Shown: positions 24,069 through 50,370 of the stretch, piece after piece
Layout: every line of letters begins with the position of its first letter
How positions within the stretch are numbered: position 1 is the first letter of the stretch
DNA from: a virus
Taxonomy: Duplodnaviria; Heunggongvirae; Uroviricota; Caudoviricetes
Virus record (IMG/VR): IMGVR_UViG_3300025693_000001
Direction: 5' to 3' (one strand)
DNA: 64,000 bases
Notes under the pieces: generated by a model
The model's database searches: none
Seen by the model: only the letters and a program-made list of their open reading frames with translations
Told to the model about the DNA's origin: nothing
Translations under genes and position numbers: made by a program

Positions 24069-24143
24069 TGGTAGTCCCGTACGGAATCGAACCGTATACG
24101 GCCTCTGTGTAAAAGAGGTTCCTCGCCATTCGGACTCGGGACT
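24069..24143 (-). tRNA. tRNA-Val (anticodon TAC), CCA encoded
   Basis: Perfect acceptor AGTCCCG/CGGGACT; anticodon stem CCTCT/AGAGG with loop TTTACAC; T-arm TACGG-TTCGATT-CCGTA. Confidence 0.65.
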
Positions 24144-24689: not shown

Positions 24690-24765
24690 TGGTGGACCGC
24701 CTGGGATTTGAACCCAGTACCCTTCGATTAAAAGTCGAATGCTCTGCCGATTGAGCTAGCGATCC
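24690..24765 (-). tRNA. tRNA-Lys (anticodon TTT), CCA encoded
   Basis: D-stem GCTC/GAGC; anticodon stem TTCGA/TCGAA with loop CTTTTAA; T-arm CTGGG-TTCAAAT-CCCAG. Confidence 0.7.
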
Positions 24766-24776
24766 ATTGTTCCCTC

Positions 24777-24975
24777 GTGTCGTAACACGGATGGTTCCCG
24801 ATAGTGCCACTTTGTGGCTTGTGTCGGGAGGGGAGGTGTGACTACCATTCTTATCTTTCCTCCACCTCCGTGCACAGATGTGGATTCGTCACCATTCTTA
24901 TGTTGTTCCCCCATATGCCGTAGCATGTATGGTTCCCGATAGTGTCAGGTGTTGGGTACGGGATGGGAATAACAC
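24777..24975. repeat. Imperfect direct repeats in the tRNA spacer (shared core ATGGTTCCCGATAGTG at 24791-24806 and 24929-24944; ACCATTCTTAT at 24845 and 24891)
   Basis: About 75% identity between two units of about 60 nt; contains a small hairpin GCCAC-TTT-GTGGC; no ORF supports them as coding. Confidence 0.55.
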
Positions 24976-24990
24976 AAAATTGTTATTTTG

Positions 24991-25065
24991 CTCAACAGGG
25001 AGGAGTCGAACCCCCAATGTCCGGTAGGTGTCAAGCTGCGCATAGTTGCTGACACGTTCTGCTGA
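24991..25065 (-). tRNA. tRNA-like element, fold unresolved (possible pseudogene)
   Basis: Canonical T-arm GGGGG-TTCGACT-CCTCC and an acceptor pairing TCAGCAG/CTGTTGA, but no clean D-arm or anticodon arm; a 7-bp hairpin with a 14-nt loop sits where the anticodon arm should be. Confidence 0.3.
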
Positions 25066-26249
25066 TCTATCTAAATTTGTTTTTTTCACAGTCGCTAAAA
25101 TTTATCCACTTTACGTATTTGTGTTTACATTTTGGACACACAACCATATCAGGTTTTTGTCTCCATCGAAATGAGCATTCACTGCAATGATATATCGCTT
25201 CCATTTATTACCACCAAAAGTACCTATAAATTAAACCGTCGGTGAAGATCTCCTTCACTGACTTGTTGATTTTTTATCGCTAATGCAGCTCTTGCATCCT
25301 CGGCCGCTAACAACAATTTTACTGATTCCAGATGTTCTGTTGTCAATTCGATATCACGCATATCTGATAACGCTTTTTTGTACTTCTTGTTTGTAACCCC
25401 AAAATCTCTGGCCATGTTGCCCTTAAAACTCTCAAAAACTAATACTATGCAATGTATAATCGTCACCAGCTTTGATTCGCTCAGCTTGTGCCAATATGAC
25501 TGCTTGCTCTTTGGTTAACGCCCAAACTTCAACCTTTTGGGGGTCATATGATGAATCAGAAAACCACACTATAAATTGTATATGTTTCATTTAGTTATTT
25601 ATGAAAAGTCTAGGCCAAGAAAGTTAAATGTCTTGGCAATCATTTTTTTGATGTTAGCTTTAGTACCCTGTTCTACTTGGGTGACAATATCTGTAACATT
25701 TGCAACCATCACTTGTTCGCACCATTGGTGCATATCTGCATCTACCGATCGAAGAGACATGCTATATGTCCTCGTATCGAATTGTTGCTGATCGTCGGCG
25801 GTTTGAAAGACAACAACCCGTAAAACAGGATTGTGTTGTTCGGATCTATCAATCTCACTCTCTACTATAAACATTACCAATTATCCACGTCTGTTAAATC
25901 AAGTTTAGCACCACAAGCACACATAACCACAACTACAGTACCCAACCCCGTTGGAGTGAAGCTGTACGTTAGTCTACCACCTATTGCACCACAAGGATTA
26001 GAAGCTGTGCTCCCGTCATCGTAAAATTTGCATGTTTTGTTGTGATCTGCTAACCAATCATTAATCAGTAGCGTATCTGATGGTGACATATCAAATCCGG
26101 AGATTGTTCCTGGTTCTTTGTCACGATCTTTAGATACTGTGAACACCGTGGTGTTGCTATCATTCGGATCCAGCTCAAATACCGGCCACTTAAAAAAGTT
26201 GCCTATTCCAGGTTTTCTATCAGACATCATGCATCCTCGTTGTTTTTTG

Positions 26250-26317
26250 TGGAGGTACGGAGAGTTGAACTCCGCCCGGTTGGTTGCAAACCATCCAGTC
26301 TAACCGTATACACCCCC
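26250..26317 (-). tRNA. Short tRNA-like gene (68 nt; anticodon possibly TGC)
   Basis: T-arm CGGAG-TTCAACT-CTCCG and acceptor GGGGGTG/TACCTCC, but a truncated D-arm and a mismatch in the anticodon stem. It lies inside ORF 26227-26427, which is therefore probably spurious. Confidence 0.4.
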
Positions 26318-26655
26318 AGTTGTTGAAATTGTGCTACATATAAATCTTTAAATCTTTTTACATTGCGTTCTCTATCGGTTGGCTTCATCTCGTCAAGCCA
26401 CTCATCCAAGTCCAGCATTGCACACATTCAGAATATCCCATCCTTCGTTGTCACTTCGGTTTTGTCAGCTCGTAAATGAGAGACAAATTCCTCAAGCAGG
26501 TCAGCTAATTCTTCTTCCGAATTTGACATTCTTGCAGAAAATTCACAGCTACATTTGTTATCACCTTCACCGTATGTTATACAGTATCTGGTTTGATTCT
26601 CGATGCCCATGATCTTCGCTAATTCCCCTAATGTATCCATTGCTTTTTCCTTATT

Positions 26656-26730
26656 TGGCTCCCACTCGAGGAATCGAACCTCGCTAAATCTCCTTAACAG
26701 GGAGGTGCCACACCTTGCGGCCCAGTGGGA
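26656..26730 (-). tRNA. tRNA-Asn (anticodon GTT), CCA encoded
   Basis: Perfect acceptor TCCCACT/AGTGGGA; D-stem GCCG/TGGC; anticodon loop CTGTTAA; T-arm CGAGG-TTCGATT-CCTCG. Confidence 0.65.
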
Positions 26731-27200
26731 ATAATCTATTCTCGATGTAGTTCAGCTAAGATTGTTAATCGTTGTTCAGCTAAGTCACCGTGTTCTATTT
26801 TCGTTGTTGCTTCTTGTCCAGTACCTGGATATTTTATTTTAATCAAAATGGCAGCATCTTCACGCCACAATTTTATAATGGTTGGCTTCGGGTCCAACAC
26901 ATCCCATTGGTTAACAATAAACGCCTCATACGAGTTGTATGAGAAGTCCGGAACTGGTAACGTATTATCAAACATTTCTTCTATGGAGTCAACATCAAAC
27001 TTGATAATCAGCTTGCCATTCTTACGAATCTCAACATCGTTATCCGTCTGGATTATCTCAACACCATCCCTTTTCATCCCAACCAATCCATATATGGCGT
27101 TGGTAAGTTCTTTGAAATTGTTGATACCCAGGAATCCTAGGAATCCTATTACAGCTTGCGAAATTGTTAATGTACCTATCATTATTATCCTTTTTGTTTG

Positions 27201-27272
27201 TAGCAGATTTGGGATTCGAACCCAAAACTTCCCACTTATCAGGTGAGCACTCTACCAATTGAGTTAATCCGC
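27201..27272 (-). tRNA. tRNA-Ile (anticodon GAT), no encoded CCA
   Basis: D-stem ACTC/GAGT with loop AATTGGTA; anticodon stem CTCAC/GTGGG with loop CTGATAA; T-arm TTGGG-TTCGAAT-CCCAA. Confidence 0.65.
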
Positions 27273-27959
27273 TATTATTAAAATTAGGTGGAAGAAACTA
27301 ACTTCCACAGTTGTGATGACCACTCGATTTCTGATGTCCCTGATACATACCCAAAGTCGATTGGACTGCCAGCACTCGTGTGCGTTTTTGTAGCTTCATC
27401 TTTCTTTGCTTGCAATTTCTTTCTAGTTTTAGCTTGTATGTTGATGGTGCGTGAAGTCTCGCTCCACTCACCACCACTATACCCACCTCTAGTTATCACA
27501 CCATATGTCATATACATTATTGTCGCACCATTGTTAGTGCTGAGATTTGGGAAAAATCAGGGATTAAGTTACCATTATAAATCAATCTCCAGGTTCCATC
27601 ATCAAGTTCATCCAAATGTATCATGTTCTTTTGTGTTTTTACCGCAGTTGCTTTTGATAGCTCCAACACAATATCTGTTCCAGTTAGTTCAATCGACCGT
27701 TTGTCTTTCATTATATTACCTTTACGAACGTGCCATCTTTAACAGCTTTGCGGATGTATCTCATCAACAGTATTGCCTTCTCTTCGTGGTGAAGGGTAGC
27801 ATCCTGTACATCATCCAATGGAACCGGAAATGAATACTCAATGTTTTCACCTGGAACCAATACACTATAATACACTACTTGGTGTCTATAGTATAGCATG
27901 TTAGCTACATTATTTTTTACAATATCTTTAATACTAAAAGTCATGTTACTTCCTTATTG

Positions 27960-28036
27960 TGGAGCTCCAGTACGGAATCGAACCGTATTCCCAACTTTAC
28001 AAGAGTTGACATCATCCAGATAAATGCTTCAAGAGC
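27960..28036 (-). tRNA. tRNA-Thr (anticodon TGT), CCA encoded
   Basis: Anticodon stem CAACT/AGTTG (perfect) with loop CTTGTAA; T-arm TACGG-TTCGATT-CCGTA; one mismatch in the acceptor stem. Confidence 0.6.
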
Positions 28037-28448
28037 TTATTGTTATTAAATTGTTGTGTATCTTTCTGTGGCAATTAGCACACACGATAACACACTTTTG
28101 TATTTCTTCCAGTAACACCCCCCATCCACATTTCGTGGCAGCGCTGCTAATGTTGAATTTTTTTTGTGTCGGATCTAAGTGGTGGAAATCTAAGCAACAC
28201 AATTCATCTTCACCACAACACACACACCCTGATTGCATCTTCAACGACGTTATGTATGCCTGGCGTTGTTTTGCATACGAATATCGCATGTTGTGATATT
28301 TCTTTGGGTTTTTAGCCCTGGATCCTTTGGTGCTTACATCAGCACACGATTTACAACTAGATTGGTACCCATCCTTCATTCTAACAGCTTTGTAGAATTC
28401 AGTTAACGGTTTATCACTATCACACTTAGTACATTTTTTCATGCCCAT
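28029..28448 (-). CDS. HNH endonuclease
   Basis: CTKCDSDKPLTEF...CKSC...LDFHHLDPTQK...CANCHRKIHN. The ORF track extends to 28487; the likely start is one of the internal ATGs (MGMKKC). Embedded in the second tRNA array. Confidence 0.6.
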   Translation of the reverse strand: MGMKKCTKCDSDKPLTEFYKAVRMKDGYQSSCKSCADVSTKGSRAKNPKKYHNMRYSYAKQRQAYITSLKMQSGCVCCGEDELCCLDFHHLDPTQKKFNISSAATKCGWGVLLEEIQKCVIVCANCHRKIHNNLITISS

Positions 28449-28491
28449 ATTTACGAGTCGAACCATCACCCACAAATACAAATCCATTGTG

Positions 28492-28564
28492 AGCCTTAGA
28501 CTGGAGTCGAACCAGCAACATCTAAATTACGAAATTAGAGCTCTACCATTGGAGCTACTAAGGC
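28492..28564 (-). tRNA. tRNA (anticodon read as CGT; identity uncertain), no encoded CCA
   Basis: Perfect acceptor GCCTTAG/CTAAGGC, D-stem GCTC/GAGC, T-arm GCTGG-TTCGACT-CCAGT; anticodon stem CTAAT/TTTAG with a 31-39 mismatch. Confidence 0.55.
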
Positions 28565-29000
28565 TTATTATCACACCACATATACCAACCGTCATTATCA
28601 AAATGTAGGTTAGGATGTAGTGAGCTTAAAGGTTCCTTTTTCATAACGATTATGGAACCACATTCCGCAACACCATGTTCGATTACTCGTCTGTGTTGCT
28701 TGTTTATTTTTGAAATTATCCGTATTTTCTTTTTCATATATCCGTATATAGTGAAAACCGTTTCCGACTTTGATTAACGAGTGTTTGGCACGGTAAAACA
28801 CCTTTCAGACTTCACTCGAGTACTTGCGATGCCACAGGCGTACTAACCTGCCTTATAATCCTTACTATAAAAGGTTGCGTCTATCTTCCGCACAAGGTTG
28901 CGGTGGGAATGTTCGTAGTAGCTTAGGCTACGATCTAGGCTCCTTTAAGTTGACCGCGTGTTACACATCATCAACCCATCCTCGTGCATGTTGTTCTTAT

Positions 29001-29077
29001 TGGTGGAGCTGGGGGGATTCGAACCCCCGACCCTCTACTTGCAAGGCAGATGCTCGTTCCAGCTGAGCTACAACCCC
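29001..29077 (-). tRNA. tRNA-Ala (anticodon TGC), CCA encoded
   Basis: 5' GGGGTTGTAGCTCAGCTGG..., D-stem GCTC/GAGC; anticodon stem TCTGC/GTAGA with loop CTTGCAA; T-arm GGGGG-TTCGAAT-CCCCC. Confidence 0.7.
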
Positions 29078-32955: not shown

Positions 32956-34050
32956 TCATAATAGGTCAGCAATAACTGCGATGCGAAGATTATCGATTGC
33001 TACACCAATTTGCTTACCTTCCAACGTATGATTGGCCGGTAGCGAACGAAACGATATAAATCTGATGAGGTTGTGTCCTTGTATAACGCGATCGTATATC
33101 AACGCCCCTGATGGATTCACTACACTAATGGCGGTTGAAATATCGTAGAGCAATTCAGAAGTTTTTATTGTTTTTAAAAATCCCAATACAGCCTCTGGTG
33201 TTACATCGTTGCTCACCAATTGCATAGCATGTTGAAATGCTAGCACATCTCTGATTACTGATGATGGTGCTCGTAGCTTTGTTAATGCGTCAGAAGCATC
33301 CAGCATCGGTCCAAATAATATCATCATTCGGATGGCGGTGCTGCAATTTCTGAGTGTTGCCGATCTAAACGATTTTCCATTTGCTACCAGAGTTTTTGTT
33401 AGCCCTGGTATGATAACATTCAATGCTCCACATCGATGGAGTATCCAAAAAAACTCCATTGCATTTGGTAGCTCGATTGCTTTAGCTGTTTCAGCCCACA
33501 CACGTTCGGGTACCAAATGATCCACTTCACCGTTTGTGGTCATTGTTGTCATCAATTGCATTGTTTGTCTGGTTACATTGAACCCATACTTAGCGTTGAA
33601 TCTAGCTATTCGCAACAATCGTACTGGATCATCCGCGAAATGCTCGGATGTGTGTTTTAGTGTTTTGTTAACAAGATCTTGCAACCCACCACATGGATCG
33701 ATCACTTTGGTAACATCATGTGTTGTTTTGAACTGATCCCAATCAGATAGCAATACTGCCATTGAGTTAATAGTTAGGTCACGGCGTAGTAGATCTTCGG
33801 CTAAGGTAACGGTGGGATTGAAGTTCGTTTCGAACCCATTGTAACCGTTACCGTTTTTCCGCTCGGTTCTAGCTAATGCGTATTCATCGCCATTGGGGCA
33901 TAAGAATACGGGAAAGTCCGCTCCAACTTGCTTGTAGCCTAACGACTCCATCTCTTCGGGCGTTGAACCGACAACAACATAATCGATATCGTTTACTGGT
34001 TGGTTTAGTAAGGTGTCTCTAACGGCACCACCAACTACATATATTAACAT
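32956..34050 (-). CDS. cca: tRNA nucleotidyltransferase (CCA-adding enzyme, class II)
   Basis: N-terminal MLIYVVGGAVRDTLLNQPVNDIDYVVVG (GGxVRD...DxD head-domain signature); 364 aa. Confidence 0.85.
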   Translation of the reverse strand: MLIYVVGGAVRDTLLNQPVNDIDYVVVGSTPEEMESLGYKQVGADFPVFLCPNGDEYALARTERKNGNGYNGFETNFNPTVTLAEDLLRRDLTINSMAVLLSDWDQFKTTHDVTKVIDPCGGLQDLVNKTLKHTSEHFADDPVRLLRIARFNAKYGFNVTRQTMQLMTTMTTNGEVDHLVPERVWAETAKAIELPNAMEFFWILHRCGALNVIIPGLTKTLVANGKSFRSATLRNCSTAIRMMILFGPMLDASDALTKLRAPSSVIRDVLAFQHAMQLVSNDVTPEAVLGFLKTIKTSELLYDISTAISVVNPSGALIYDRVIQGHNLIRFISFRSLPANHTLEGKQIGVAIDNLRIAVIADLL

Positions 34051-36958: not shown

Positions 36959-37405
36959 TCACCCCATTTTCTCCTGTATTATCTGTTTGATGATAGGTCC
37001 AGCGATTTGTCCATCCACTTGATCCGGAAAGGCTTTGTTTAACGCACCCATCGTTCTACCCATCAACTTCATGGAGATTTCCGATGATGATAAACTAGAT
37101 AACAATCCCGACGCGAATTCAGTAATCACTTCTTCTGATATTGTAGCTGGAATATATTGCTCGTACAACGCAACTTCATTTATTTCAGCATCAGTCAGCG
37201 GACGATATGTTTGATTGTCTCGAACGCCCTTAATGAATTTCTTGACAACCTTCATAACTTCATCGTCAGTTGACTCACGATTACCATCATTCTTACCTAA
37301 GATGGCAGCTTCGCCGTACAGTGTTGTTAATGTTGTTGCGGCAGCTTTATTTCGGTCCTTACGGAATTGCAATCGATCTGCAGCTATTTGTGATAATAAT
37401 GACAT
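36959..37405 (-). CDS. yqeY: GatB/YqeY-domain protein
   Basis: C-terminal MGRTMGALNKAFPDQVDGQIAGPIIKQIIQEKMG against YqeY MGKVMGAL...GRADGKLVNQIVKEKL; the N-terminal half is also collinear. Confidence 0.75.
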   Translation of the reverse strand: MSLLSQIAADRLQFRKDRNKAAATTLTTLYGEAAILGKNDGNRESTDDEVMKVVKKFIKGVRDNQTYRPLTDAEINEVALYEQYIPATISEEVITEFASGLLSSLSSSEISMKLMGRTMGALNKAFPDQVDGQIAGPIIKQIIQEKMG

Positions 37406-37415
37406 ATTGTTGTTC

Positions 37416-37868
37416 CTATTTGTGTGATTTTAGATTGCGCAATGTTATTGTCGCATCAGTATCAAGTGTGTTTTCGTCATGGACGCTTTTTTTTGGCTTT
37501 TGCTCTGGTTGTATCTCTCGCTTGGGAAACATTTCTCTCCACCGTTTTTTGATTCGTGAGTTCGCTATGGCTACGTCATCATGCCATTCAAAATCAAAAA
37601 ATATCACCAAAGATGTGACTAATCCAATTACCAATCCTATCATGGCAATTATGATTTCGGGTTGTGTAAACCCTGATATCACTGTAAGCCTGTCGATATC
37701 CTTCGGGTTGTGTGGCACACTAACAACCAAACTGATAAATTGCCATCCAAAACTAATCCAGTACCCTATCACCGGAAAATGTCTACATTCGTTGTGATTT
37801 GACAATGCTACTATTGTGAACGTAATAGTAGTGAGAAAGATCATACATATAAAAAAAGTTAATATCAT
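37416..37868 (-). CDS. Membrane protein (150 aa, 3-4 TM)
   Basis: Hydrophobic helices; stop overlaps the NAMPT start region. Confidence 0.4.
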   Translation of the reverse strand: MILTFFICMIFLTTITFTIVALSNHNECRHFPVIGYWISFGWQFISLVVSVPHNPKDIDRLTVISGFTQPEIIIAMIGLVIGLVTSLVIFFDFEWHDDVAIANSRIKKRWREMFPKREIQPEQKPKKSVHDENTLDTDATITLRNLKSHK

Positions 37869-39289
37869 AATGTGTTAGTTGTGTTGAATCTAGTAGTACG
37901 AACTTCTTCCAATGTTGTAGTTCGCAATATTTTACCATTTAGGTACACAGGAGTGAGCATTTGTTCATCCATTGTTTTTGCCCCAATACAATCTGTTGTA
38001 AATTTACCTGCATCCGAACGGTATAACATTAATTGTCCACGTTTCGAGCGTTTACCGGTATCGGTAATCGGATCTTTGAATACATCGACCCACTCACCAT
38101 TGATAAATGCAGCACTTGCTTTATATGCCCATCTGCCAGTATCTCGATCCAGTTGTTGTAATAACGCACCACCCTGTCCAAATAATACATTTTCCGCACT
38201 GAACTTGTATCCAACCATCTTCGATAATATAGCATCAATGCTTTTGGTTGTAATGCCATCACCTTGCAACACTCGAACATGTTTTAGTACTTTATAGCCT
38301 TTGGTATTACGGATGTAACCGAATGCGGATTCAAGCAACAACATAATTTTTGTTACCACGGTTGCTGGATCACCACTATCAGGTCTGATAACTAGCCACC
38401 CATCACACTCAATAACCAATTCTTTCAGCTCATCACCCCAGATATGTTCAACTGCATTGAAAATATCGTACGAGTCGGATACCACAGAGAATGCGAAGAA
38501 CTTGTCTCCATATTGCTTCAACATATTGCGATATGCTTCTGTCTCCCGTCCCTTGCCCCATGTAGTAATTGAACTGTGTTCGGATGCTGGTACAGATTTT
38601 CCTGACATCTCATGCGAATATTGTCTATTTGCGTGAACTATACCTGGTACATTATCAGATCCTTTGAAATTTACCAAGTGTGCAGCTCCACCAATCATGG
38701 CACTTTCCAGTGAACTAACACCACGCGATCCGAAGTCATGCAACATAAAATCGATAGCATCTTCCTGTTCTTGTCCGGTTAAGTCGGATGTTGATTTCAT
38801 GTAACTCGTAATTACTTTTCTGGTGGTCCAGCTGTTGGTTGCTACTGTAGTTGGATACCACACACCACGTAATATCGATGGTTCGACGTGTGATGGTAAC
38901 CAAAAGCATTTCGGATCAGTATTAACGATAGTAACCAGTGCATTGCTTACCGGTACAACAGTACCTTCCGCCACCGACTTGATTTTTAACGGTAAGTAAC
39001 CGTTGTGCTCTTTTAATATGTGTTGCCATCCTTCTTTGTTGAATGGTTCACCATGAGCAGGCCAGAACAATTCCGCTTCGTCAATCATTTCTTGTGTGAT
39101 TGGTTTGCTCATGTATTCTTGTAAGAACATCTGCAATCCGAAGAATACCGTTTCATCGTATACCCCACCACGCGATTCAATATAGCAGTGAACATACTCA
39201 ATACCAGGGGGATACTGCAACCAATGGCTCGCTTTATATGAATCTGTGTTTAGTAAAATGTTAAAAACTGCGTGTTGTAAAAAGTTCAT
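37865..39289 (-). CDS. nadV: Nicotinamide phosphoribosyltransferase (NAMPT)
   Basis: Collinear with NAMPT across its whole length: FNILLNTDSYKASHWLQYPP, GWQHILKEHNGYLPLKIKSVAEGTVVP, LHDFGSRGVSS, AAHLVNFKGSDNVPG, IRPDSGDP, VLQGDGI, KRSKRGQL. Confidence 0.95.
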   Translation of the reverse strand: MNFLQHAVFNILLNTDSYKASHWLQYPPGIEYVHCYIESRGGVYDETVFFGLQMFLQEYMSKPITQEMIDEAELFWPAHGEPFNKEGWQHILKEHNGYLPLKIKSVAEGTVVPVSNALVTIVNTDPKCFWLPSHVEPSILRGVWYPTTVATNSWTTRKVITSYMKSTSDLTGQEQEDAIDFMLHDFGSRGVSSLESAMIGGAAHLVNFKGSDNVPGIVHANRQYSHEMSGKSVPASEHSSITTWGKGRETEAYRNMLKQYGDKFFAFSVVSDSYDIFNAVEHIWGDELKELVIECDGWLVIRPDSGDPATVVTKIMLLLESAFGYIRNTKGYKVLKHVRVLQGDGITTKSIDAILSKMVGYKFSAENVLFGQGGALLQQLDRDTGRWAYKASAAFINGEWVDVFKDPITDTGKRSKRGQLMLYRSDAGKFTTDCIGAKTMDEQMLTPVYLNGKILRTTTLEEVRTTRFNTTNTL

Positions 39290-39313
39290 TATAGAAATCC
39301 TCTATGTTTGCGT

Positions 39314-39336
39314 GGGATATCGTCTATCGATATCCC
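39314..39336. other. Perfect 9-bp hairpin GGGATATCG-TCTAT-CGATATCCC between HNH and nadV
   Basis: Inverted repeat seen directly; no adjacent T-run. Confidence 0.5.
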
Positions 39337-39394
39337 TTGTGCGTTAAAAATAAAAAGCATCACCTGTAACTGCAATGCTCGACAACTGGTTTTG

Positions 39395-40009
39395 TTAGTC
39401 ACCAATGAAAGCATTGACGATGTTGGTTGAGTTTAGTGCCGTTGTTACTATATCCAATATATCTTCCGCAGTATTACCCTCTTGTTTCAATTGCCAAATA
39501 GCAACTTGTATGTGTTCGGTTGGTGTTCCGTTGTTTTTTATCCGATTGGCTCGATTCGATATAATGTTAATATTATCCATTGTATATCCGTTTTCGGGTA
39601 TGAGTCTATCAGTGGACGGAGAATTATCCGTCATTACTCCTTCGATTTTATCATATACTATCGGTATATGAAGTACCGGACATAGATGCACTGTTCCATA
39701 TATTGTTCTAAATTCTTCTTTTGTCAACAAAAACAAAACATTCTTTTTTTTTGCCCGTTGTTTAATTTCATTGTATATTTCACGGGATCTATTAAACACC
39801 CTATTGTGGGTAACACGAATATCACGAGCAACCTTACAACAAATTGGACAGCTATTGTCTTTTGTGTAAAATAATACTTTTCCGTGTTTTTTACAGATGT
39901 GGCGATAATATGTGGCATTGCGTTGTTTTGCTTCCACTAACGTTTCAGCTACATCGTCTGTCGTTTGATATAATATATCCCACCGTTGTTTAAAGTTTAT
40001 CATTTCCAT
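39395..40009 (-). CDS. HNH homing endonuclease inserted between nadM and nadV
   Basis: CKKHG...CPIC zinc finger, then ...IPENGYTMDNINIISNRANRIKNNG (HNH_3-type motif). Confidence 0.6.
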   Translation of the reverse strand: MEMINFKQRWDILYQTTDDVAETLVEAKQRNATYYRHICKKHGKVLFYTKDNSCPICCKVARDIRVTHNRVFNRSREIYNEIKQRAKKKNVLFLLTKEEFRTIYGTVHLCPVLHIPIVYDKIEGVMTDNSPSTDRLIPENGYTMDNINIISNRANRIKNNGTPTEHIQVAIWQLKQEGNTAEDILDIVTTALNSTNIVNAFIGD

Positions 40010-40018
40010 GTGTGGTCT

Positions 40019-40046
40019 CCTGGAAGAGATAATGCTCTCTTCCAGG
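40019..40046. other. Perfect 11-bp hairpin CCTGGAAGAGA-TAATGC-TCTCTTCCAGG between nadM and HNH
   Basis: Inverted repeat seen directly; lies 8 nt after the nadM stop. Confidence 0.5.
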
Positions 40047-40053
40047 TTATTTA

Positions 40054-41091
40054 TTACAACCGTCCCAACATATCAAAAATAATATCGTAGTGATCTTCAA
40101 ACAATTGATCGCGCATTTCTTTAATTGTGGTAATCGGAATCCATTGTGCTTTTTCAGCATCATCGCTTCCTTTCACTTTTGGAAGTCCACCTGGTGGTAA
40201 TTCGATACCGTAAGCATGTGTTATAGTTCTACCCCGTAAACTTCGGGCAGGGTGATCGTACACCTCTTGTATTTTGATATTCCCCCGTAATATAGGATCG
40301 GGCACCTTAATTTTAGTCTCTTCTCTTAATTCCCGTAACATAGCATCAATGAGAGTCTCGTTTGGATTTACAAACCCCCCGACAATAGCCCACAATCCTT
40401 TTCCTGGAGCCGATCGCCGTTTTACCAATAACACGTGTCCTGATTGCACCACTACAGCATCAACTGTCACGAAGATTGGTTCATATGGAGCTACAGCCCA
40501 AGCGGATTTATATTTCTGTATAAATTCATATTCATATTTCAGTTGTTCGAAGATAGGTTTTAGCTTCCATGCCAACAAGTATTCGTGAATAGCTTTTGGT
40601 AATGTTGGCATAACTTGTTTGCTGAAAAAGTCTGTTGAGTGTTCAAACAAAGCGACACGGATGTCAGTTGCGTGCAAGTCGTTGATATTAGGAACCTCAA
40701 CATGCTTCCATTGAGGAAACATTTTTAAGTAGAATGATGTGTCATCTTTAGTGTGACCGATCATTCCGATGTGGCTTCCTTCGGTGCTTAACGTTTCGAC
40801 CATTTTTTGGACTTGTGTAACCCAACGTTGATTGTTGTAAGCATCATCCGCAATGGGTGCAAATTGTACTCTGAGTTTTTCGCTATGAGATAGCGAGTTG
40901 CTGATCATTTCCGCACGTTCTTGCCATGACCAAGGATTTTTGATTGTCTTTGGTTGAAATGACGATCCGATTAGTATTATAACATTTTTGGATTGTTGTA
41001 ACGCAATTTTGATTGTTTCGATGTGTGCCAAGTGAGATGGCTGAAATCTACCAATGTACACGAGGTAGTCGTATTGTTCTTCTGTATTCAT
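40054..41091 (-). CDS. nadM: Bifunctional NMN adenylyltransferase / Nudix hydrolase (NadM-like)
   Basis: N-terminal YLVYIGRFQPSHLAHIE ((H/T)xGH-type nucleotidyltransferase motif); C-terminal Nudix box GGFVNPNETLIDAMLRELREETKI. Confidence 0.9.
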   Translation of the reverse strand: MNTEEQYDYLVYIGRFQPSHLAHIETIKIALQQSKNVIILIGSSFQPKTIKNPWSWQERAEMISNSLSHSEKLRVQFAPIADDAYNNQRWVTQVQKMVETLSTEGSHIGMIGHTKDDTSFYLKMFPQWKHVEVPNINDLHATDIRVALFEHSTDFFSKQVMPTLPKAIHEYLLAWKLKPIFEQLKYEYEFIQKYKSAWAVAPYEPIFVTVDAVVVQSGHVLLVKRRSAPGKGLWAIVGGFVNPNETLIDAMLRELREETKIKVPDPILRGNIKIQEVYDHPARSLRGRTITHAYGIELPPGGLPKVKGSDDAEKAQWIPITTIKEMRDQLFEDHYDIIFDMLGRL

Positions 41092-41144
41092 AGGAAATCC
41101 TCCTAGGTTATTGTTATGCGATGAGTCTATCTCATCGCTGTTAT

Positions 41145-41699
41145 TTATGGACAGTACAGGCCATAGCCAAATTGTACGTTAAGACCCTCATTCCAAAACC
41201 CATTAATAGGTGGTGGCGGATCAAATGCTGCAAATGCTGGATCAGCAATTGCAATGTCTTGAGCCATTATATACTCAAGATCGGGTAATGACAACTGCAC
41301 AAACCACAACCACAGGTCGATAAAGTGTCTAAATCTATCGTCTTCGTTGAAGTAGTACACATCATTACCATCATACATATAATGTCCTTTGATGAAATTA
41401 TCAACAAGAGGACAATCCAAATCAACTAATATATCATACGTTTCTTGATATGTGAATGGTTTGTCATACTCTGTTGCAATTCGATACAATTTATCCACTC
41501 GCCAGTCCCGTGCGACTTCGGTATAATCCTCGTTGTGATTGAAGGATATTCCAGTCATCTTGCATGATGCTTTGTATGCTTTTTGTATATCATCCACCGT
41601 TTTGTTGGTTCTGATACCAAAGTTGGTTGTTTGACTGTGACCATCACTGGACCAATCTCCAAGCACCAATAGCATATCGTGTTGATCTACCTTACTCAT
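41145..41699 (-). CDS. Hypothetical protein (184 aa)
   Basis: Clean ORF overlapping the next gene by 8 nt. Confidence 0.4.
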   Translation of the reverse strand: MSKVDQHDMLLVLGDWSSDGHSQTTNFGIRTNKTVDDIQKAYKASCKMTGISFNHNEDYTEVARDWRVDKLYRIATEYDKPFTYQETYDILVDLDCPLVDNFIKGHYMYDGNDVYYFNEDDRFRHFIDLWLWFVQLSLPDLEYIMAQDIAIADPAFAAFDPPPPINGFWNEGLNVQFGYGLYCP

Positions 41700-42456
41700 A
41701 CTGACCTACCGGATAACATTGTTTAGAATCTTTACAGGCATATAGCATCCCCGATGAATGTGTTACTAATTTAATTGGTTTAAAAATTATTGGTGCTTCG
41801 TCTTTTAGTGATGGGTCGCTTGTTGCTATTTGTCCATCATCACCTTTAAACAGATATATTGGTGTTTTGCTTCGTATGCGATTGCTTAGGTATTCGGTTT
41901 TAAACCGTCTACCTTTGGTGTTCACTTGTTTTAGTGTTTGGACTGCATCTTCTGATTTTGTTGAAGTTGAACTAGTGACACTGATGTTATCACCGACAAA
42001 CGAAAAGAACATAAATGCTACGAATATCCCAACAAACAAACTTTCGGTAAATATCCAAACCACCACGAAGATGACACAAGTAACCAACACAAAACCTGTG
42101 TTTACTGAAGAGCTATCATCACTATCGGTGGTTTGTTCCACCACTTCCGATATGTCAGCCTTAACGTCTGGTCGTAATTTGCTCATGTCTGCTTTCACAT
42201 CAGCTTTGATGGCATTCAATTCCCGCTTCGTGTCATCTTGGATGGTTTTTATATCTTGTGTTATAGCGATTGGTGTTTCCGGTATGACAGCATCCATGTG
42301 AATATTCGCAGCAGCCCACCCAACGAACACACCAGTTCCGATAACGTACAGTATCAATGGCATATCCAACTCCAGTAAGAAATCAAAAAACATAGTGCCA
42401 ACAATTAATGCAAAGTACAGCAGAATCATAGTTCCCATCATTTCACCCGATAACAA
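41692..42456 (-). CDS. Membrane protein with charged central segment (254 aa)
   Basis: Two N-terminal and two central TM helices; repeated KADxxK segment. Confidence 0.45.
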   Translation of the reverse strand: MLSGEMMGTMILLYFALIVGTMFFDFLLELDMPLILYVIGTGVFVGWAAANIHMDAVIPETPIAITQDIKTIQDDTKRELNAIKADVKADMSKLRPDVKADISEVVEQTTDSDDSSSVNTGFVLVTCVIFVVVWIFTESLFVGIFVAFMFFSFVGDNISVTSSTSTKSEDAVQTLKQVNTKGRRFKTEYLSNRIRSKTPIYLFKGDDGQIATSDPSLKDEAPIIFKPIKLVTHSSGMLYACKDSKQCYPVGQYE

Positions 42457-42713
42457 GTATCAACATCAATGGCATCACACGCATATAGTGTTCCATCTGA
42501 GTGTTGTTTTAGTGTAACTTCTTTGTGACTGCGTTTTTTATTTGGTAGGTACTCACGGACAATATTCTCTTTTGATTTGAATACGGGAGGATTACTAGTT
42601 GTACCTTTACGCTCTTCCATTTCCTTCACCGCAGGGATAACGATTGATGCTAATATACCGATGATTGTTACCACAATCATCATCTCAATTAATGTGAAGC
42701 CTTTTTGTTTCAT
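42438..42713 (-). CDS. Type IV pilin / pseudopilin-like protein (prepilin N-terminal methylation motif)
   Basis: MKQKGFTLIEMMIVVTIIGILASIVIPA is the classic prepilin signature: a short basic leader, G followed by FTLIE, then a hydrophobic helix. The ORF track starts earlier (42791); the ATG at 42713 is favoured. Confidence 0.65.
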   Translation of the reverse strand: MKQKGFTLIEMMIVVTIIGILASIVIPAVKEMEERKGTTSNPPVFKSKENIVREYLPNKKRSHKEVTLKQHSDGTLYACDAIDVDTCYRVK

Positions 42714-42792
42714 AATATTCTCTTTATTGTTAATAAAATTGGGATTCGTCCCATTAGAAAACTGAATTATACTCGATACGTGCACGTGCATG

Positions 42793-43047
42793 CTACGAAA
42801 ATACCATCCAGGCGAAGTATGCGTTCGTTATCACGTAAGACAAACCCACCGACATAACCAGAAATACGATAACAAATAGCACAGGCAATACACCTTGTAT
42901 GCTCAATGATGCTATTCGTTCGTATCTACCACCATACTTGCCTATGAACCCATTTCGGTAATCATTAAATAGGGTAGCCCACCAGACAACTAGGAATCCA
43001 TTAACGATTCCTAGAACCAATACCATAAGGAACAATAATGTATTCAT
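42793..43047 (-). CDS. Small two-TM membrane protein (84 aa)
   Basis: Two hydrophobic helices. Confidence 0.4.
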   Translation of the reverse strand: MNTLLFLMVLVLGIVNGFLVVWWATLFNDYRNGFIGKYGGRYERIASLSIQGVLPVLFVIVFLVMSVGLSYVITNAYFAWMVFS

Positions 43048-45023
43048 TATAACAACTGCATGAAGTCTTCAACTGTAATGATCTTTTTGCTTAGATCTCT
43101 GGCTTTCTTTAGTTTACCACTCGCACCGTTCACATCAACGGTCACAACGAGATCGGTGGTTTTGCTAACACCACTCTGTACTGTACCACCTTTCGACTCC
43201 ACAGCAGCTTGAAGTGGTTTATCACGAAAGCCGGTGAAGCATATTTTCATCCCAGCTAATTTAGCATCGGTTGGTGTTGCACTTTCAAGTGTTACCAGAT
43301 GCTTAACGATGGGGAAAAAGTCATTGAATGCGTTTATAGCGGCCATGGCGCCCGTAGCGGTGATGGTATCAAAGCCATCCAACGATTTGATCGATGATAT
43401 TGATTGGTTGGTGGTAAAGTTACCACCAACTGCTAGCTCAACCTTACGCATCTTTCGTATACCAATTCCACGTTGATTTGAGTGTGCACCTACTAGCTTG
43501 TGTAGTGTAATACCATTTAACTTTTCGTGAATGCTTTTGAATACTTTTTTCCCATTCTCACCCAGCACACCAACCAATTCAGCTTCGGTCATTGTTAGTA
43601 TCGATTCGGGTGTGTCAATTTTGCTATCAACTAATTTCGTTACATTGCCCATACCAAGAAACGCAATATCTAGTTTATCAAAGAAATCATATAACTGCTT
43701 GATTAATATGATGGAATGGTTGCTAATGTCGACTACCTTTGCATCCACACCGTCCCCTTTGTCTGTGGTAGACCAGGTCCAAACGCCGAACTGATCCATT
43801 TGATCATTGAACCACAAGTTGTATTCGTCATCAGACATTTCGTCGGTCTGTCCCAAAATCTTTGTTACATTAGGAACCACATCCCCCATACGAGAGATTG
43901 CCACTTTTGTGCCTGGTCTGATTTTGTTTTCTAGTAAGTATTTGGCGTTTAGGGCTGTAGCATGAACGATAGTAACACCGACCAGATTAACAGGTTTAAC
44001 GTGAAATCGTGGTTTTATGAATCCGTGTTTGGATAATCTCAGTTCAATCCAAGTAACTTCCGTTTCTGCGTAATTATCAGCATCTGTCGTTTTGTACTTA
44101 AATGAATATGATGGATTGAGGGCAGCAGCATTTGGACTGAGTCTCACACGCTCTAATTCGTCATCAACATCAACAACAATACCATCGATTTCATATTCAG
44201 CTTTCTCTTTTCGTTCTGTTAGGTATGCAATTAAGTCTGGATCATTCAGATCCCTACCCATCCGCGTTGCCAGAACGGGAACTTTAAAGCCGTACTCCAT
44301 TAGAGTATACAGCATTGCTGTTTTACTAAGAGTAACACCAACGATTTGGTATGATACGAATTTGAGAAATGAATACACGATATCCGGATTTGTTTTTGAA
44401 TTCATCAACCCTGCAACCATATTGCGAGCGTTTTTGTATTCTAAGCCCTGACGAGTAAACACTTTAGTTTTCAGGACATCAAACCCTTCTTTTGTTAGAA
44501 TGATTTCACCACGAATAGCCAACGATGTTGGGTGTGGTATTGATTTTGGTACAATTTTTGATAGGTGACGAGAAATATCCGCACCTTCCGTACCATCCCC
44601 ACGACTATAACCAATTTGAAACGGTTCATCGTTACCAGGATAGATTGCCATCGCACTAACACCGTCAAGTTTGTCGGTTATAACAAATCGTGATGTTGTT
44701 AATCGGTTATCAGAAACCCAAGCTTCTACATCATTCTCGAATATTTGGTTTAGACTGCCCATTTTATGTGGCAGTTTTACTTTACCACCACGGACAGCAC
44801 TTCCAACCCCAGTAAAATATACGTGGTGAGGAACGGAGAGTTGCAATTTGCGGCGTAGGATGTCGTATTGTGTGTCTGTTAGTGTTAAATCACCATCAGT
44901 ACTGTTGGCATATTCATCGTCGGCAGTCATTAGAATATCAATTAATTCCTGGGTTGAATGCTCTTCGATCAGTGTATCAATTAATTCGGTTGTGGATTTT
45001 GCTGCATCTGTGATAAAACTCAT
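43047..45023 (-). CDS. ligA: NAD+-dependent DNA ligase (LigA type)
   Basis: KxDG adenylation motif as ITDKLDGVSAMA at about residue 118 (E. coli K115); 658 aa; C-terminal BRCT-like KICFTGF...VSKTTDLVVT...SGKLKKA. Confidence 0.85.
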   Translation of the reverse strand: MSFITDAAKSTTELIDTLIEEHSTQELIDILMTADDEYANSTDGDLTLTDTQYDILRRKLQLSVPHHVYFTGVGSAVRGGKVKLPHKMGSLNQIFENDVEAWVSDNRLTTSRFVITDKLDGVSAMAIYPGNDEPFQIGYSRGDGTEGADISRHLSKIVPKSIPHPTSLAIRGEIILTKEGFDVLKTKVFTRQGLEYKNARNMVAGLMNSKTNPDIVYSFLKFVSYQIVGVTLSKTAMLYTLMEYGFKVPVLATRMGRDLNDPDLIAYLTERKEKAEYEIDGIVVDVDDELERVRLSPNAAALNPSYSFKYKTTDADNYAETEVTWIELRLSKHGFIKPRFHVKPVNLVGVTIVHATALNAKYLLENKIRPGTKVAISRMGDVVPNVTKILGQTDEMSDDEYNLWFNDQMDQFGVWTWSTTDKGDGVDAKVVDISNHSIILIKQLYDFFDKLDIAFLGMGNVTKLVDSKIDTPESILTMTEAELVGVLGENGKKVFKSIHEKLNGITLHKLVGAHSNQRGIGIRKMRKVELAVGGNFTTNQSISSIKSLDGFDTITATGAMAAINAFNDFFPIVKHLVTLESATPTDAKLAGMKICFTGFRDKPLQAAVESKGGTVQSGVSKTTDLVVTVDVNGASGKLKKARDLSKKIITVEDFMQLL

Positions 45024-45089
45024 TGGTAACCCTTATTTGTGTAATTGAGTATATTATAGGTTAAAGTGTTGTTGTTGTCAACCAACCAT

Positions 45090-45125: not shown

Positions 45126-45551
45126 ATGACTCAACCAACAATAGCCGATTATCAAGTTGACTTAACAGAGAGCTTGAAAGGTAAGATAGATTTAAACGAC
45201 ATCAAAGATGTAAGTGCCCCCGGACCTGCAGATGGTGAAGCATTGGTGTGGAATAACACAAACGCGAAATGGGAGTCTAGCATTTCTGCACCAGGTACAC
45301 ATTACATAGAGGTGACTGGAGCAGGTGTTGGTACAGTATTACCAGGCGGTTGGTCTGTTGTACGTGATAGTGCAGGAGTATACACGATAACACACAACTT
45401 GGGCAATTCGACGTTGGGATATGCAATCATGCAAGCTGATGCTGTAGCTATTGCTCAGTCTAGTAGTATAACAGCTACGACTACTAATACGTTTACTATA
45501 ACATTTAGTAGTGCAACTGATACTGATTTTGCTGGTCGTGTGATTACTTAA
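45126..45551 (+). CDS. Late-promoter-driven small beta-rich protein (141 aa), possibly virion-associated
   Basis: Late box plus Shine-Dalgarno; Thr/Ser/Gly-rich composition. Confidence 0.45.
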   Translation: MTQPTIADYQVDLTESLKGKIDLNDIKDVSAPGPADGEALVWNNTNAKWESSISAPGTHYIEVTGAGVGTVLPGGWSVVRDSAGVYTITHNLGNSTLGYAIMQADAVAIAQSSSITATTTNTFTITFSSATDTDFAGRVIT

Positions 45552-49213: not shown

Positions 49214-49570
49214 TTACCCAGTCGCATAAAACGCATCTGGGTGTTTGTTTTTCTTTTTCATATTTTCCGTATGTGGAATTATTCGTAAGTTTGATATGGT
49301 ATGCAATCCACTCACGAGTTTTCCGTTAATGGGATAGTAATGATCCACGGAGTGTATCATTAAAGTGGCTGTTGATATCGTTTTGGCTAACGCATACGTA
49401 TCACGGATCCACACCCGCTCGAGTGGTGTCATCCAATTAGGTGTTGCTCTTTTTTGTTGTTGATATCGTTTCGACATGCAAGCAACACACCGATTGCATT
49501 TTATGTATCGTATCCCGCTGTGTCCGTTTCGACAGGGTTTACCTTGGTATTGCGTGACTGATTGTGTCAT
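49214..49570 (-). CDS. HNH endonuclease (CRNGH subfamily, paralogue of 14877-15461)
   Basis: CRNGHSG...CNRCVAC and VDHYYPINGKLVSGLHTISNLRIIPHTEN. Confidence 0.6.
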   Translation of the reverse strand: MTQSVTQYQGKPCRNGHSGIRYIKCNRCVACMSKRYQQQKRATPNWMTPLERVWIRDTYALAKTISTATLMIHSVDHYYPINGKLVSGLHTISNLRIIPHTENMKKKNKHPDAFYATG

Positions 49571-50370
49571 TTTAATCTAGCTCGTTGTACATGCATGTAG
49601 TCACGATTCGTGGCACGTCCAAGAGATGTCCATTGTTCATCTTCCCAGATTTTCCACCACTCGTCGTACATTGGATTTGCAAAATTGGCACGTTGACTTC
49701 CCCACTTTAACTGATTTCTGGCACTATCCCAATCGATAGCAATACCCCAAGAGTGCATGGAGTAGTTGTTACCACCACGCATCTTACGAACATTCAAACA
49801 TCCAGCCCAAAGATCCATACCCAAATCGATGTATTGTTCGGATCCGTAATGATCCAGAACTCGATCTAACACACGAACGATACTATCAGCAACCTTTTCG
49901 TGACAAGTAAATCTGTTGATTTTTGTGTCAGTATCCCAAGCCAGACGTACAGCATGTGGCAAATCAACTTTTACTTGATTTGTACCCACTTCTCCGTAAT
50001 ATTTTACTAGGTCTTTGTAATTTTGTAAAGGAATATCCGATATAATACCAGGTGCTGGAACATTAACATCACCATCACGCCAAATTTGTTCTGGTTTATC
50101 ATGTTTGATTAAATACTTTAGTTGATCCAATGCGTATAATGTTTGTGGTCCCATGTATCCATCTATTGGTCCTCCATTGAATCCTTCAATAAAAGCATAC
50201 AACTGGATGAAACACACGATTTTGCGTTGATCCTTCCAAGGTAATGGGATTTGTGGAACGTGATCCAATGCTGCCATTGTTTTTGCACCAGCATCACCAT
50301 CAACGATCAAGTTCTGAGCGCAATGCTTATTCATACCAGTTTGTACTGTTTGTATTGTTTCTATATTCAT
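49567..50370 (-). CDS. Endolysin: peptidoglycan-binding domain plus peptidase M15 (L-alanyl-D-glutamate / D-Ala-D-Ala peptidase family)
   Basis: N-terminal DGDAGAKTMAALD (PG_binding_1-like); C-terminal SMHSWGIAIDWD (SxHxxGxAxD) of M15 peptidases. Confidence 0.8.
   Translation of the reverse strand: MNIETIQTVQTGMNKHCAQNLIVDGDAGAKTMAALDHVPQIPLPWKDQRKIVCFIQLYAFIEGFNGGPIDGYMGPQTLYALDQLKYLIKHDKPEQIWRDGDVNVPAPGIISDIPLQNYKDLVKYYGEVGTNQVKVDLPHAVRLAWDTDTKINRFTCHEKVADSIVRVLDRVLDHYGSEQYIDLGMDLWAGCLNVRKMRGGNNYSMHSWGIAIDWDSARNQLKWGSQRANFANPMYDEWWKIWEDEQWTSLGRATNRDYMHVQRARLK

Follow-up and report, generated by a model that had tools for sequence, protein, structure and literature searches.

A predicted, drastically truncated type IVa pilin and its membrane partner, which share a C-terminal domain, in an uncultured jumbo phage

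Type IV pili serve bacteria in DNA uptake and virulence and are among the major receptors of phages, and several described systems link them to viruses or to signalling by pilin subunits. The archaeal provirus SNJ2 encodes the pilins PilA1 and PilA2, which the host assembles into its dominant surface pili (PMC12426801), and this is the only functional precedent for virus-encoded pilins in the literature that we searched. Phages can also switch type IV pili off: inhibition is reported for Aqs1 of phage DMS3 (PMC13436744), for a protein of the filamentous phage Pf (PMC8764522) and for the phage inhibitor PlzR (PMC11461919). In Caulobacter a 17-residue PilA transmembrane peptide (CIP) binds the first transmembrane segment (TM1) of PleC, and cells become 77% less susceptible to the pilus-specific phage PhiCbK; an intramembrane PilA-PilS autoregulation in P. 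aeruginosa is cited in the same work (PMC7196804). Finally, TfpY, TfpX and TfpZ (FimB-like) are inner-membrane proteins of about 235-245 residues whose genes lie directly downstream of the major pilin gene; they have N-terminal transmembrane (TM) helices and a periplasmic C-domain ending in a three-stranded antiparallel sheet, and they interact with pilins although they are not in the pilus (PMC11841053). Here we describe a locus in a 64,000-nucleotide stretch of DNA (the window) from a virus of the class Caudoviricetes, IMG/VR record IMGVR_UViG_3300025693_000001. It encodes a 91-residue prepilin-type protein, which we call the mini-pilin, and directly downstream of it a membrane protein, the partner, which ends in a homologous C-terminal domain (C-domain). 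We propose, with a probability of roughly 0.4, that pilin mimicry at the inner membrane would lead to loss or paralysis of the type IV filaments of the host.

The open reading frame (ORF) of the mini-pilin reads MKQKGFTLIEMMIVVTIIGILASIVIPAVKEM... and its product starts with MKQKG, followed by FTLIEMMIVVTIIGILASIVIPA (coordinates of all features are given in Table 1). The start constitutes a class III (prepilin) signal, MKQKG/FTLIE, composed of a short basic leader, a glycine at -1, a phenylalanine at +1 and a glutamate at +5. A preliminary description of this DNA had pointed to a type IV prepilin leader and N-terminal helix in this ORF and both were borne out, as Pfam N_methyl (PF07963) matches with 39.9 bits against a cut-off of 21.2 (E 2.5e-10) and TIGR02532 with 39.6 bits against 16.3. 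The motif is singular in the window: a back-translated KGFTLIE DNA pattern occurs once in the 64 kb and in none of 100 shuffles, and no second KGFTLIE is found in the six frames. An independent gene call by the JGI uses the same start and the homologues all begin with MK..KGFTLIE. The hydrophobic helix (alpha1-N) reaches a Kyte-Doolittle peak of 2.73 across residues 3-32. An AlphaFold2 (AF2) model based on a 17-sequence alignment, with a mean predicted local distance difference test score (pLDDT) of 71.9, has a helix at residues 8-37 (87-93 over residues 11-30), a disordered linker and then three short strands at 66-70, 76-80 and 87-90, with a pLDDT of 74-81 in the sheet. Confidence in this model is moderate, an earlier model from a 6-sequence alignment being poorer (pLDDT 62), and a Foldseek search of the PDB with it returned nothing with E < 0.8 and was uninformative. 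By its signal and profile matches the 91-residue protein is a genuine prepilin-type protein, encoded by the phage. No candidate for a prepilin peptidase (A24-like) was found among the multi-TM ORFs of the window.

Five full-length homologues of the mini-pilin, with 58-65% identity, were found first, and a profile search of a 5.8-billion-protein collection returned 15 family members at 87-132 bits; next in the ranking came ordinary type IVa major pilins (PF00114), none of which exceeded 75 bits. The 17-sequence alignment, at 34-66% identity, has as invariant residues G-1, F+1, T+2, L+3, I+4 and E+5 and, further on, N58, G74, C79, C87 and V90. No part of these proteins is better conserved than GFTLIE, so that the motif on which the preliminary description had rested its reading is kept in the homologues; P+22 and G+14 are present in the window protein and are not kept across the family. 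Glycine at -1 is required for cleavage by prepilin peptidase, and E+5 and alpha1-N mediate extraction and assembly. Since GFTLIE is invariant at this level of divergence while the TM hairpins of the partner drift freely, selection would seem to act on the determinants of PilD processing and assembly and not on a generic membrane anchor.

Which cellular proteins come closest can be read from the N-terminal part. The first 40 residues match type IVa major pilins in hhalign with E 1.4e-19, are 68% identical to a cellular PilA-type pilin and match P. aeruginosa PilA structures in the PDB with E 1.7e-13. The label "pseudopilin-like", which had been given to the protein earlier, is not the most fitting one: the GspG model (TIGR01710) reaches 34.2 bits against a cut-off of 88.85, over the N-terminal 33 residues only, ComGC reaches 42 against 75, and GspH, GspI and the other ComG models likewise stay under their cut-offs, so that every specific pilin or pseudopilin equivalog model falls far short. 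The closest cellular relatives are the type IVa major pilins (PilA type) and not the pseudopilins of type II secretion systems (T2SS). Like PilA and PilE, the mini-pilin has a 5-residue leader ending in glycine together with F+1, E+5, G+14 and P+22. Its two cysteines near the C-terminus recall the disulfide loop of the PilA D-region. Unlike PilA it has only 86 mature residues, about 50 of them after the helix, lacks the alpha-beta loop and the four-stranded head, for which three short strands are predicted instead, does not match PF00114 (Pilin), is phage-encoded and is paired with a paralogous membrane protein that is not a pilin. We infer that the mini-pilin is a pilin-derived, drastically truncated type IVa pilin that is a member of no named pilin family. 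A weak in-register resemblance is seen around the invariant C79 and C87, between VTLKQHSDGTLYAC and the PilA segment ITLNRTADGVWACK, but the C-domain alone is not significantly pilin-like. Its descent from the pilin D-region was considered and set aside as not significant (nothing relevant in a profile search of the PDB; hhalign E 0.34), and long BLASTP alignments to PilA were judged to be collinear drift only. Exact matches to the peptide GFTLIEMMIVVTIIGILA were confined to pilins from three sources, a marine gammaproteobacterial metagenome-assembled genome, Psychrobacter immobilis and an Acinetobacter species, which is a weak hint to the host. One homologue (P0022, 165 residues) has an N-terminal extension of about 75 residues with extra hydrophobic segments before KNKQKGFTLIE; either a membrane gene upstream has been fused to it or the gene was called too long.

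Prepilin-type genes are not restricted to this phage clade. In the phage collection 134 records, among them one Salmonella contig, had N-terminal matches to the 91-residue protein by tblastn; by organism there were 49 matches for Synechococcus, 37 for Pseudomonas, 29 for Vibrio, 10 for Aeromonas, 4 for Acinetobacter and 2 for Delftia phiW-14, the matches listed for Pseudomonas being PAK_P3-like. Six PHROGs were matched, one of which is named "pilin" (phrog_3433). The mini-ORFs range from 31 to 126 residues. At the small end are PX29p038 of Aeromonas phage PX29 (31 residues, between nrdB and nrdD), phiW-14 gp119 (44 residues, among hypothetical genes) and PAK_P3 gp139 (59 residues, among hypothetical genes downstream of a helicase); all three consist of leader and alpha1-N only and have nucleotide-metabolism or uncharacterised non-virion genes nearby. 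Longer ones are gp058 of Vibrio phage 1.081.O (82 residues, between the genes of peptidyl-tRNA hydrolase and thymidylate synthase), the "PilE-like" gp97 of Acibel004 (107 residues, hypothetical genes around) and a "pilin" of cyanophage ACG-2014f (126 residues, between psbD and talC). Of these, gp058 of 1.081.O closes with a similar cysteine loop, G..L.C(x6)C.PVK, and by its score belongs to our family. The mini-pilin resembles the mini-ORFs of isolated phages in its class III signal, its small size and its neighbours, which there belong to nucleotide metabolism or photosynthesis or are uncharacterised and are not annotated virion genes; it differs from most of them in having the C-domain (EY..N..RS / HSDG..AC..CY). 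No paralogous partner gene was present at the isolated-phage loci that were inspected. As other phages retain only leader and alpha1-N, these genes suggest that the activity resides in the N-terminal helix itself. Prepilin-type genes are thus recurrent in phages, T4-like ones included, and already annotated there. The view that such a gene is not a standard T4-like function was overstated, given their recurrence in T4-like Aeromonas, Vibrio and cyanophages and in PAK_P3-like phages. In the literature searched we found no functional study of a bacteriophage prepilin-type protein. A further case concerns Synechococcus phage S-CAM7 (KU686212.1, about 33594-33983), where the coding sequence C490910_035 is annotated from MVVVAIVG, inside the pilin helix; when the frame is read from a start further upstream, the product begins MTSFNKSLLRQIAQKKNKAQNG/FTLIELMVVV... 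and has the whole prepilin leader. High affinity of S-CAM7 for host type IV pili is reported in a 2025 preprint (10.1101/2025.09.20.677514).

The second element of the locus is the partner. Its last 65 residues or so align with the C-domain of the mini-pilin (BLASTP E 1e-4 for the window pair), and an alignment of 6 mini-pilins and 5 partners has 12 invariant columns, E-Y-x2-N-x2-R-S ... L-x2-H-x2-G-x3-A-C ... C-Y. A hidden Markov model (HMM) of the C-domain retrieves both families. The partner version contains an insertion of about 30 residues, a degenerate second hairpin, which in distant lineages can still be recognised as a repeat of the DG..AC(x4-7)C[FY] hairpin. Outside this domain the partner is built of TM hairpins, which, as said above, drift freely; the partner alignment over 8 lineages keeps 31 invariant columns. 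We examined 10 lineages (the window, P0002-P0006, P0016, P0021, P0025 and P0028). In all 10 a gene for a TM-hairpin protein lies directly downstream of the mini-pilin gene, overlapping or abutting it, and in 9 of them this protein has the shared C-domain. The tenth (L024 7276-7554, in a 363-kb relative) encodes a partner of only 92 residues, with a TM hairpin and an acidic linker and truncated before the C-domain, either naturally or by a frameshift. Apart from this family the partner stands alone: it has no match in Pfam, PHROG, NCBIfam or PADLOC, none by tblastn in phages, none with its profile in IMG/VR, and only itself in a word-indexed protein search. The C-domain is rare. A profile of the C-terminal 47 residues of the mini-pilin found 22 proteins among 1.84 billion representatives, only on phage-like metagenomic contigs, no match in 185,579 species genomes, and only two loci, of one sister lineage, in JGI metagenome contigs. 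Large matches of the C-domain HMM in several stretches of P0014, P0017, P0019 and P0020 were taken as chance resemblance of hairpins; P0020, when inspected, had RCC1-like DGTVWACG repeats.

The partner recalls TfpY in the position of its gene directly downstream of a pilin and in its combination of TM segments with a C-terminal soluble domain that we take to be periplasmic. TfpY has three TM helices compared with the two hairpins (four TM helices) of the partner, it shares no domain with its pilin, unlike the partner, and it promotes assembly. Sequence similarity between the partner and TfpY was not detected, hhalign giving E 0.49 to a pilin-adjacent 255-residue marine gammaproteobacterial membrane protein that has no Pfam family and whose identity with TfpY is unconfirmed. 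From its homology to the pilin C-domain and the conserved cysteine pair, the C-domain of the partner should be periplasmic; four TM segments would then place the N-terminus and the acidic linker on that side as well, a weak step in view of the charge balance of the partner. Type IV pilin-like genes in phages or viruses are already known, but this two-gene architecture and its C-domain are previously undescribed.

The sharing of one domain by two proteins invites an alternative in which the C-domain is the effector: a small periplasmic cysteine-loop domain, displayed by both proteins at the inner membrane, would bind a target in the envelope such as peptidoglycan, secretin or the tail-tip or ejection proteins of an incoming phage, giving superinfection exclusion of the Imm/Sp type or envelope remodelling, and the prepilin signal would serve only for type II membrane targeting. 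The residues E, Y, N, R, S, L, H, G, A, C, C and Y are invariant across both families, the domain is the sole element common to two proteins with different anchors, and P0015 and the partners of L020, L021 and L025 bear it on plain TM hairpins, the hairpin being sometimes duplicated. A small two-TM protein adjoins the pair in the clade of the window, and T4 Imm and Sp have similar gene sizes and topologies. We nevertheless regard this alternative as unlikely, since a mere anchor would not hold GFTLIE invariant over such divergence, many phages keep the pilin helix alone without the C-domain, and no Imm/Sp PHROG or PADLOC model was matched (PADLOC gave nothing for any of the four proteins examined, and PHROGs nothing relevant for those of 84 and 249 residues).

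The preliminary description had suggested that the protein could plug into or poison the type IV pilus or T2SS machinery of the host, for instance for superinfection exclusion, and as a hypothesis this is still the best one. Pilin mimicry, which we prefer, could work as follows. The mini-pilin would be made early, from a host-type promoter, and inserted into the inner membrane of the host, its leader on the cytoplasmic and its C-terminus on the periplasmic side. The host prepilin peptidase (PilD) would cleave after Gly5 and N-methylate the new N-terminus. The partner would be co-translated and would hold the same cysteine-containing C-domain at the membrane by TM hairpins that are not pilin-like. 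Before assembly, mature pilins are stored in the inner membrane as a pool that kinases sense by intramembrane contacts; the mini-pilin would imitate this pool and either signal through pilin-sensing kinases of the PilS/PleC type or load onto the assembly platform. The partner, which could not be extracted, would act as a tether or a jam, or would present the same periplasmic ligand a second time. As an outcome the host would lose its type IV pili or have them paralysed, possibly also its T2SS or competence pseudopili, and the benefit would be that the infected cell is shielded from competitor phages that depend on pili and that progeny are spared futile adsorption. A more specific version, which we hold to be doubtful, is that the minimal PilD-processed pilin and its tethered paralogue form a decoy or jamming complex that locks the type IV pilus or T2SS platform or fakes a full pilin pool to the kinases.

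Such a mechanism would have the same outcome as proposed for Aqs1, the Pf protein and PlzR, namely type IV pili switched off to exclude competitors. Tip and Zip are further phage inhibitors of type IV pili. The Pf protein, which we take to be PfsE, presumably an inner-membrane protein of about 30 residues that binds PilC, would be very small and hydrophobic like the mini-pilins. To our knowledge none of these is pilin-like. So far as is known, these inhibitors act on the motor or the platform, as unrelated small proteins; imitating the subunit itself, together with a tethered paralogue, would be another way of doing it. Closer in its logic is the Caulobacter CIP/PleC case, where the TM helix of the mature pilin alone signals and cuts both functional pili and susceptibility to pilus phage, and a mini-pilin of leader and alpha1-N would supply just such a helix from within the cell; there, and in PilA-PilS, the signal is the host's own pilin or a synthetic peptide and is not phage-encoded. 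We know of no example of an intramembrane pilin-helix signal encoded by a phage.

Several points weigh against pilin mimicry. Some of the phages that carry mini-pilins may not use pili as receptor, and shut-off at the level of transcription would be slow for a lytic cycle. If the N-terminal helix were the signal and nothing else, the conserved C-domain and the partner would be left without a role. Confidence in the predicted structure is moderate and searching for similar folds was uninformative, and the charge distribution of the partner, with its basic C-domain, does not itself favour a periplasmic site. The invariable position of the pair in an island of NAD genes, described below, is not accounted for except as inherited synteny.

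The comparison with SNJ2 raises another alternative, a constructive hijack in which mini-pilin subunits are polymerised by the machinery of the host and the resulting thin pilus or pseudopilus is useful to the phage, for adhesion or aggregation of infected cells, as receptor for a partner virus, or as a piston through the secretin that aids release. The window protein has all of E+5, F+1, G+14 and P+22, as filament assembly needs, short filament-forming pilins have solved structures ("Geopilin domain 1" chains of Geobacter are among the PDB matches), and PilA1/PilA2 of SNJ2 hijack the host PilB/PilC and become the dominant pili (PMC12426801). SNJ2 shares with our locus host-captured, duplicated pilin genes and the reliance on host peptidase and assembly machinery. 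It differs in being a temperate archaeal virus with full-length pilins that form dominant pili and serve as receptor for another virus, whereas here we have a truncated pilin of a probably lytic bacterial jumbo phage. For an apparently lytic phage with a host-type promoter, surface filaments on a doomed cell have no obvious pay-off. Moreover the family as a whole does not keep P+22 and G+14, a paralogous partner that cannot be extracted suits tethering better than fibre formation, and the 31-59-residue versions in other phages are without any head domain. These points make polymerisation an improbable reading, somewhat more so than that of the C-domain as effector.

The locus itself lies in a string of minus-strand genes (Table 1). 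Ligase and 84-residue ORF overlap by 1 nt (TAATG), the 84-residue gene is separated from the mini-pilin gene by a 79-nt spacer, the partner starts on the mini-pilin stop in an ATGA overlap and is translationally coupled to it, partner and 184-residue gene overlap by 8 nt, and an intergenic gap precedes the NadR-like gene. ORFs of 117 and 254 residues in the mechanical ORF list appear to be over-extensions, since homologues and the independent gene call use MKQKG and the ATG overlapping the pilin stop. The start of the partner is most likely the ATG at 42441, hence 249 residues and not the 254 of the preliminary description; LSGE, the extra residues of the version with a TTG start, is an overlapping reading of the conserved pilin C-terminus. 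That description had also seen four overlapping genes in one membrane cluster. The pair and the 84-residue protein remain of it, the 184-residue protein is unrelated, and overlap holds for mini-pilin and partner and for partner and 184-residue gene but not between the 84-residue gene, which overlaps the ligase instead, and the mini-pilin.

Table 1. Features of the locus in the window (64,000 nucleotides)
Feature	Position	Strand	Residues	Remarks
Sigma-70 consensus promoter TTGACA-17-TATAAT	45053..45081	(-)		12/12 matches; 30 nt upstream of ligase start
NAD-dependent DNA ligase	43047-45023	(-)		Pfam DNA_ligase_aden, OB, BRCT; upstream gene of string, context, outside module
84-aa ORF	42793-43047	(-)	84	Small membrane protein, two TM helices
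79-nt spacer	42714..42792	(-)		-10-like TATAAT 42766-42771; weak 5-bp hairpin 42740-42753; ribosome-binding site AAAGAGAA
Mini-pilin	42438-42713	(-)	91	Stop codon 42438-42440
Mini-pilin leader MKQKG	42699-42713	(-)		PilD cleavage predicted between G5 and F6
Mini-pilin alpha1-N	42630-42698	(-)	6-28	E+5, G+14, P+22
Mini-pilin linker between alpha1-N and C-domain		(-)		Predicted disordered
Mini-pilin C-domain	42441-42557	(-)	53-91	EY..N..RS...L..H..G...AC(x7)CY.V
Partner membrane protein	41692-42441	(-)	249
Partner TM hairpin 1		(-)	~3-47	Hydropathy
Partner acidic linker		(-)	48-114	Probably coiled
Partner TM hairpin 2		(-)	115-153	Hydropathy
Partner C-terminal domain	41707-41898	(-)	182-245	Homologous to mini-pilin C-domain
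Acidic soluble protein, phrog_20092	41145-41699	(-)	184
NadR-like NMN adenylyltransferase-Nudix gene	40054-41091	(-)		Intergenic gaps on both sides
HNH endonuclease	39395-40009	(-)		Intergenic gap before NAMPT
NAMPT	37865-39289	(-)		Last gene tabulated in string

The 84-residue protein has TM helices at about residues 2-24 and 49-75 by hydropathy and between them a basic loop with 4 K/R, and is predicted to be N-out and C-out. Its alignment has 14 invariant columns, with the loop motif WW..LF.DY..GFIG.YGG..E..S..Q, and it has no PHROG, Pfam, NCBIfam or PADLOC match. It is conserved only in the clade of the window and absent from the distant lineages L020, L021, L024 and L025, and is a clade-specific accessory of the module. 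The 184-residue protein was considered as a further member and rejected: its homologues occur in Vibrio phage D479 and in phages of the Gram-positive hosts Brevibacillus, Lactococcus and Bacillus, a gene for an AAA ATPase stands between it and the partner gene in the sister lineages L001 and L005, and a different protein takes its place in L020, L021, L024 and L025. The module as conserved in these sequences is a two-gene core of mini-pilin and partner plus one clade-specific accessory gene. The intervening ATPase is of the classical AAA type (PF00004; L001 1963-2976 and L005 4138-5151, directly after the partner gene); it also occurs elsewhere in the island of L024 (12885-13859) and is absent from the window.

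The perfect consensus promoter upstream of the ligase probably drives early transcription, by host RNA polymerase, of ligase, 84-residue gene, mini-pilin, partner and 184-residue gene, and it suggests a host with sigma-70 specificity like that of E. coli. Within the spacer and the end of the small TM gene, GTAGCA-N19-TATAnT (window 42766-42796, minus strand) keeps its fixed spacing in three lineages (the window, L007 and L012), reading TATA(A/G/C)T at its end; the 19 nt between are variable and an internal TAG is the stop of the small TM gene. This element may be an internal promoter for the mini-pilin pair, and it is unique in the window, where it is no recurrent promoter motif. A structured RNA or terminator in the 79-nt spacer was rejected, as folding was no better than that of shuffles.

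In every lineage the pair sits between NAD genes. The island (window 36959-45023, minus strand; L020, L021, L024, L025) has upstream of the pair an NAD-dependent ligase, or NadA and NAD kinase, the NAD kinase gene overlapping the mini-pilin start in L024 and L025; downstream are a NadR-like NMNAT-Nudix gene, NAMPT and YqeY, and the islands of relatives additionally contain NadA, NAD kinase, NADAR and a second cytidylyltransferase. This constant flanking could mean that the pair is a membrane device that senses or imports NAD precursors or counters a membrane-associated defence that depletes NAD. We think this very improbable, since nothing in the proteins resembles transporters or NAD-binding folds and neither the mini-pilin of 1.081.O nor the N-terminal-only mini-ORF of PX29 lies beside NAD genes. 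As the islands are collinear across a single phage clade, inherited synteny is the simplest reading of the linkage.

The source of the window is an uncultured jumbo phage, and the window covers 64 kb of its genome of about 325 kb, an accessory, non-structural region with a GC content of 40% that is apparently transcribed early. The best phage matches of the ligase (34-39% identical) are the jumbo phages Phosso, XacN1 and Atu_ph07, the identical mini-pilin occurs on metagenomic contigs of up to 324,905 bp (JGI 3300008227) and a distant relative on one of 363,531 bp (3300021514); near-identical DNA for the region was not found in isolated phages. The neighbours of the pair are ligase and NAD-salvage genes, not virion genes, and, as the preliminary description had allowed for a virion component, it should be said that nothing places the mini-pilin among virion genes. 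That the proteins are virion or lysis components unrelated to host pili (holin, spanin-like or structural) is hard to credit. The cluster does consist of small membrane proteins and an endolysin gene lies 6.5 kb away, at 49567-50370; however, it is not adjacent to the endolysin, structural genes are not nearby, a lipoprotein partner is absent, no holin or spanin family is matched, the upstream host-type promoter suggests early and not late expression, and the prepilin motif is conserved.

Other genes of the window and its relatives deserve mention. The endolysin (minus strand; phrog_17001, E 1e-79) is followed by an overlapping 118-residue ORF at 49214-49570 (minus strand) that matches no family, and no holin or spanin was identified near it. 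The sole plus-strand gene of the neighbourhood (45126-45551) encodes 141 residues with weak matches to head-decoration and fibre PHROGs, and its homologue in L002 has a phage tail Collar domain. A 490-residue protein at 19274-20746 (minus strand), the largest membrane protein of the window, is basic and rich in Q and K at its N-terminus, has about 5-6 TM segments towards its C-terminus and finds no match in Pfam or PHROG. Fourteen tRNA genes form two clusters (2176-6018 and 24069-29077, minus strand) with small ORFs interspersed; together with an RnlA-like RNA ligase (13719-14867) and a CCA-adding enzyme (32956-34050), also in the window, they suggest a toolkit for tRNA repair and supply. In L012 (2513-4715) and L013 (2250-4452) the NAD-dependent ligase is called as two ORFs of 228 and 465 residues about 119 nt apart, which could be due to an intron, another insertion or a frameshift.

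If our proposal were correct, an inhibitor that mimics a pilin would represent a new mechanistic class, and in its version with a decoy or jamming complex the roughly 130 isolated phage genomes with mini-ORFs would share an unrecognised, mimicry-based class of anti-pilus or superinfection-exclusion factors. Such an inhibitor would give a function to mini-ORFs that are now unannotated, including those of therapeutic PAK_P3-like phages and of marine cyanophages with pilus-dependent host encounter. A peptide this small could inspire scaffolds that block pili, in keeping with the work on synthetic CIP (PMC7196804), and the C-domain shared by two anchors offers a handle for finding its periplasmic target. 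If on the other hand the mini-pilin were built into filaments, the viral pili of archaeal SNJ2 would for the first time have a counterpart in a bacterial phage.

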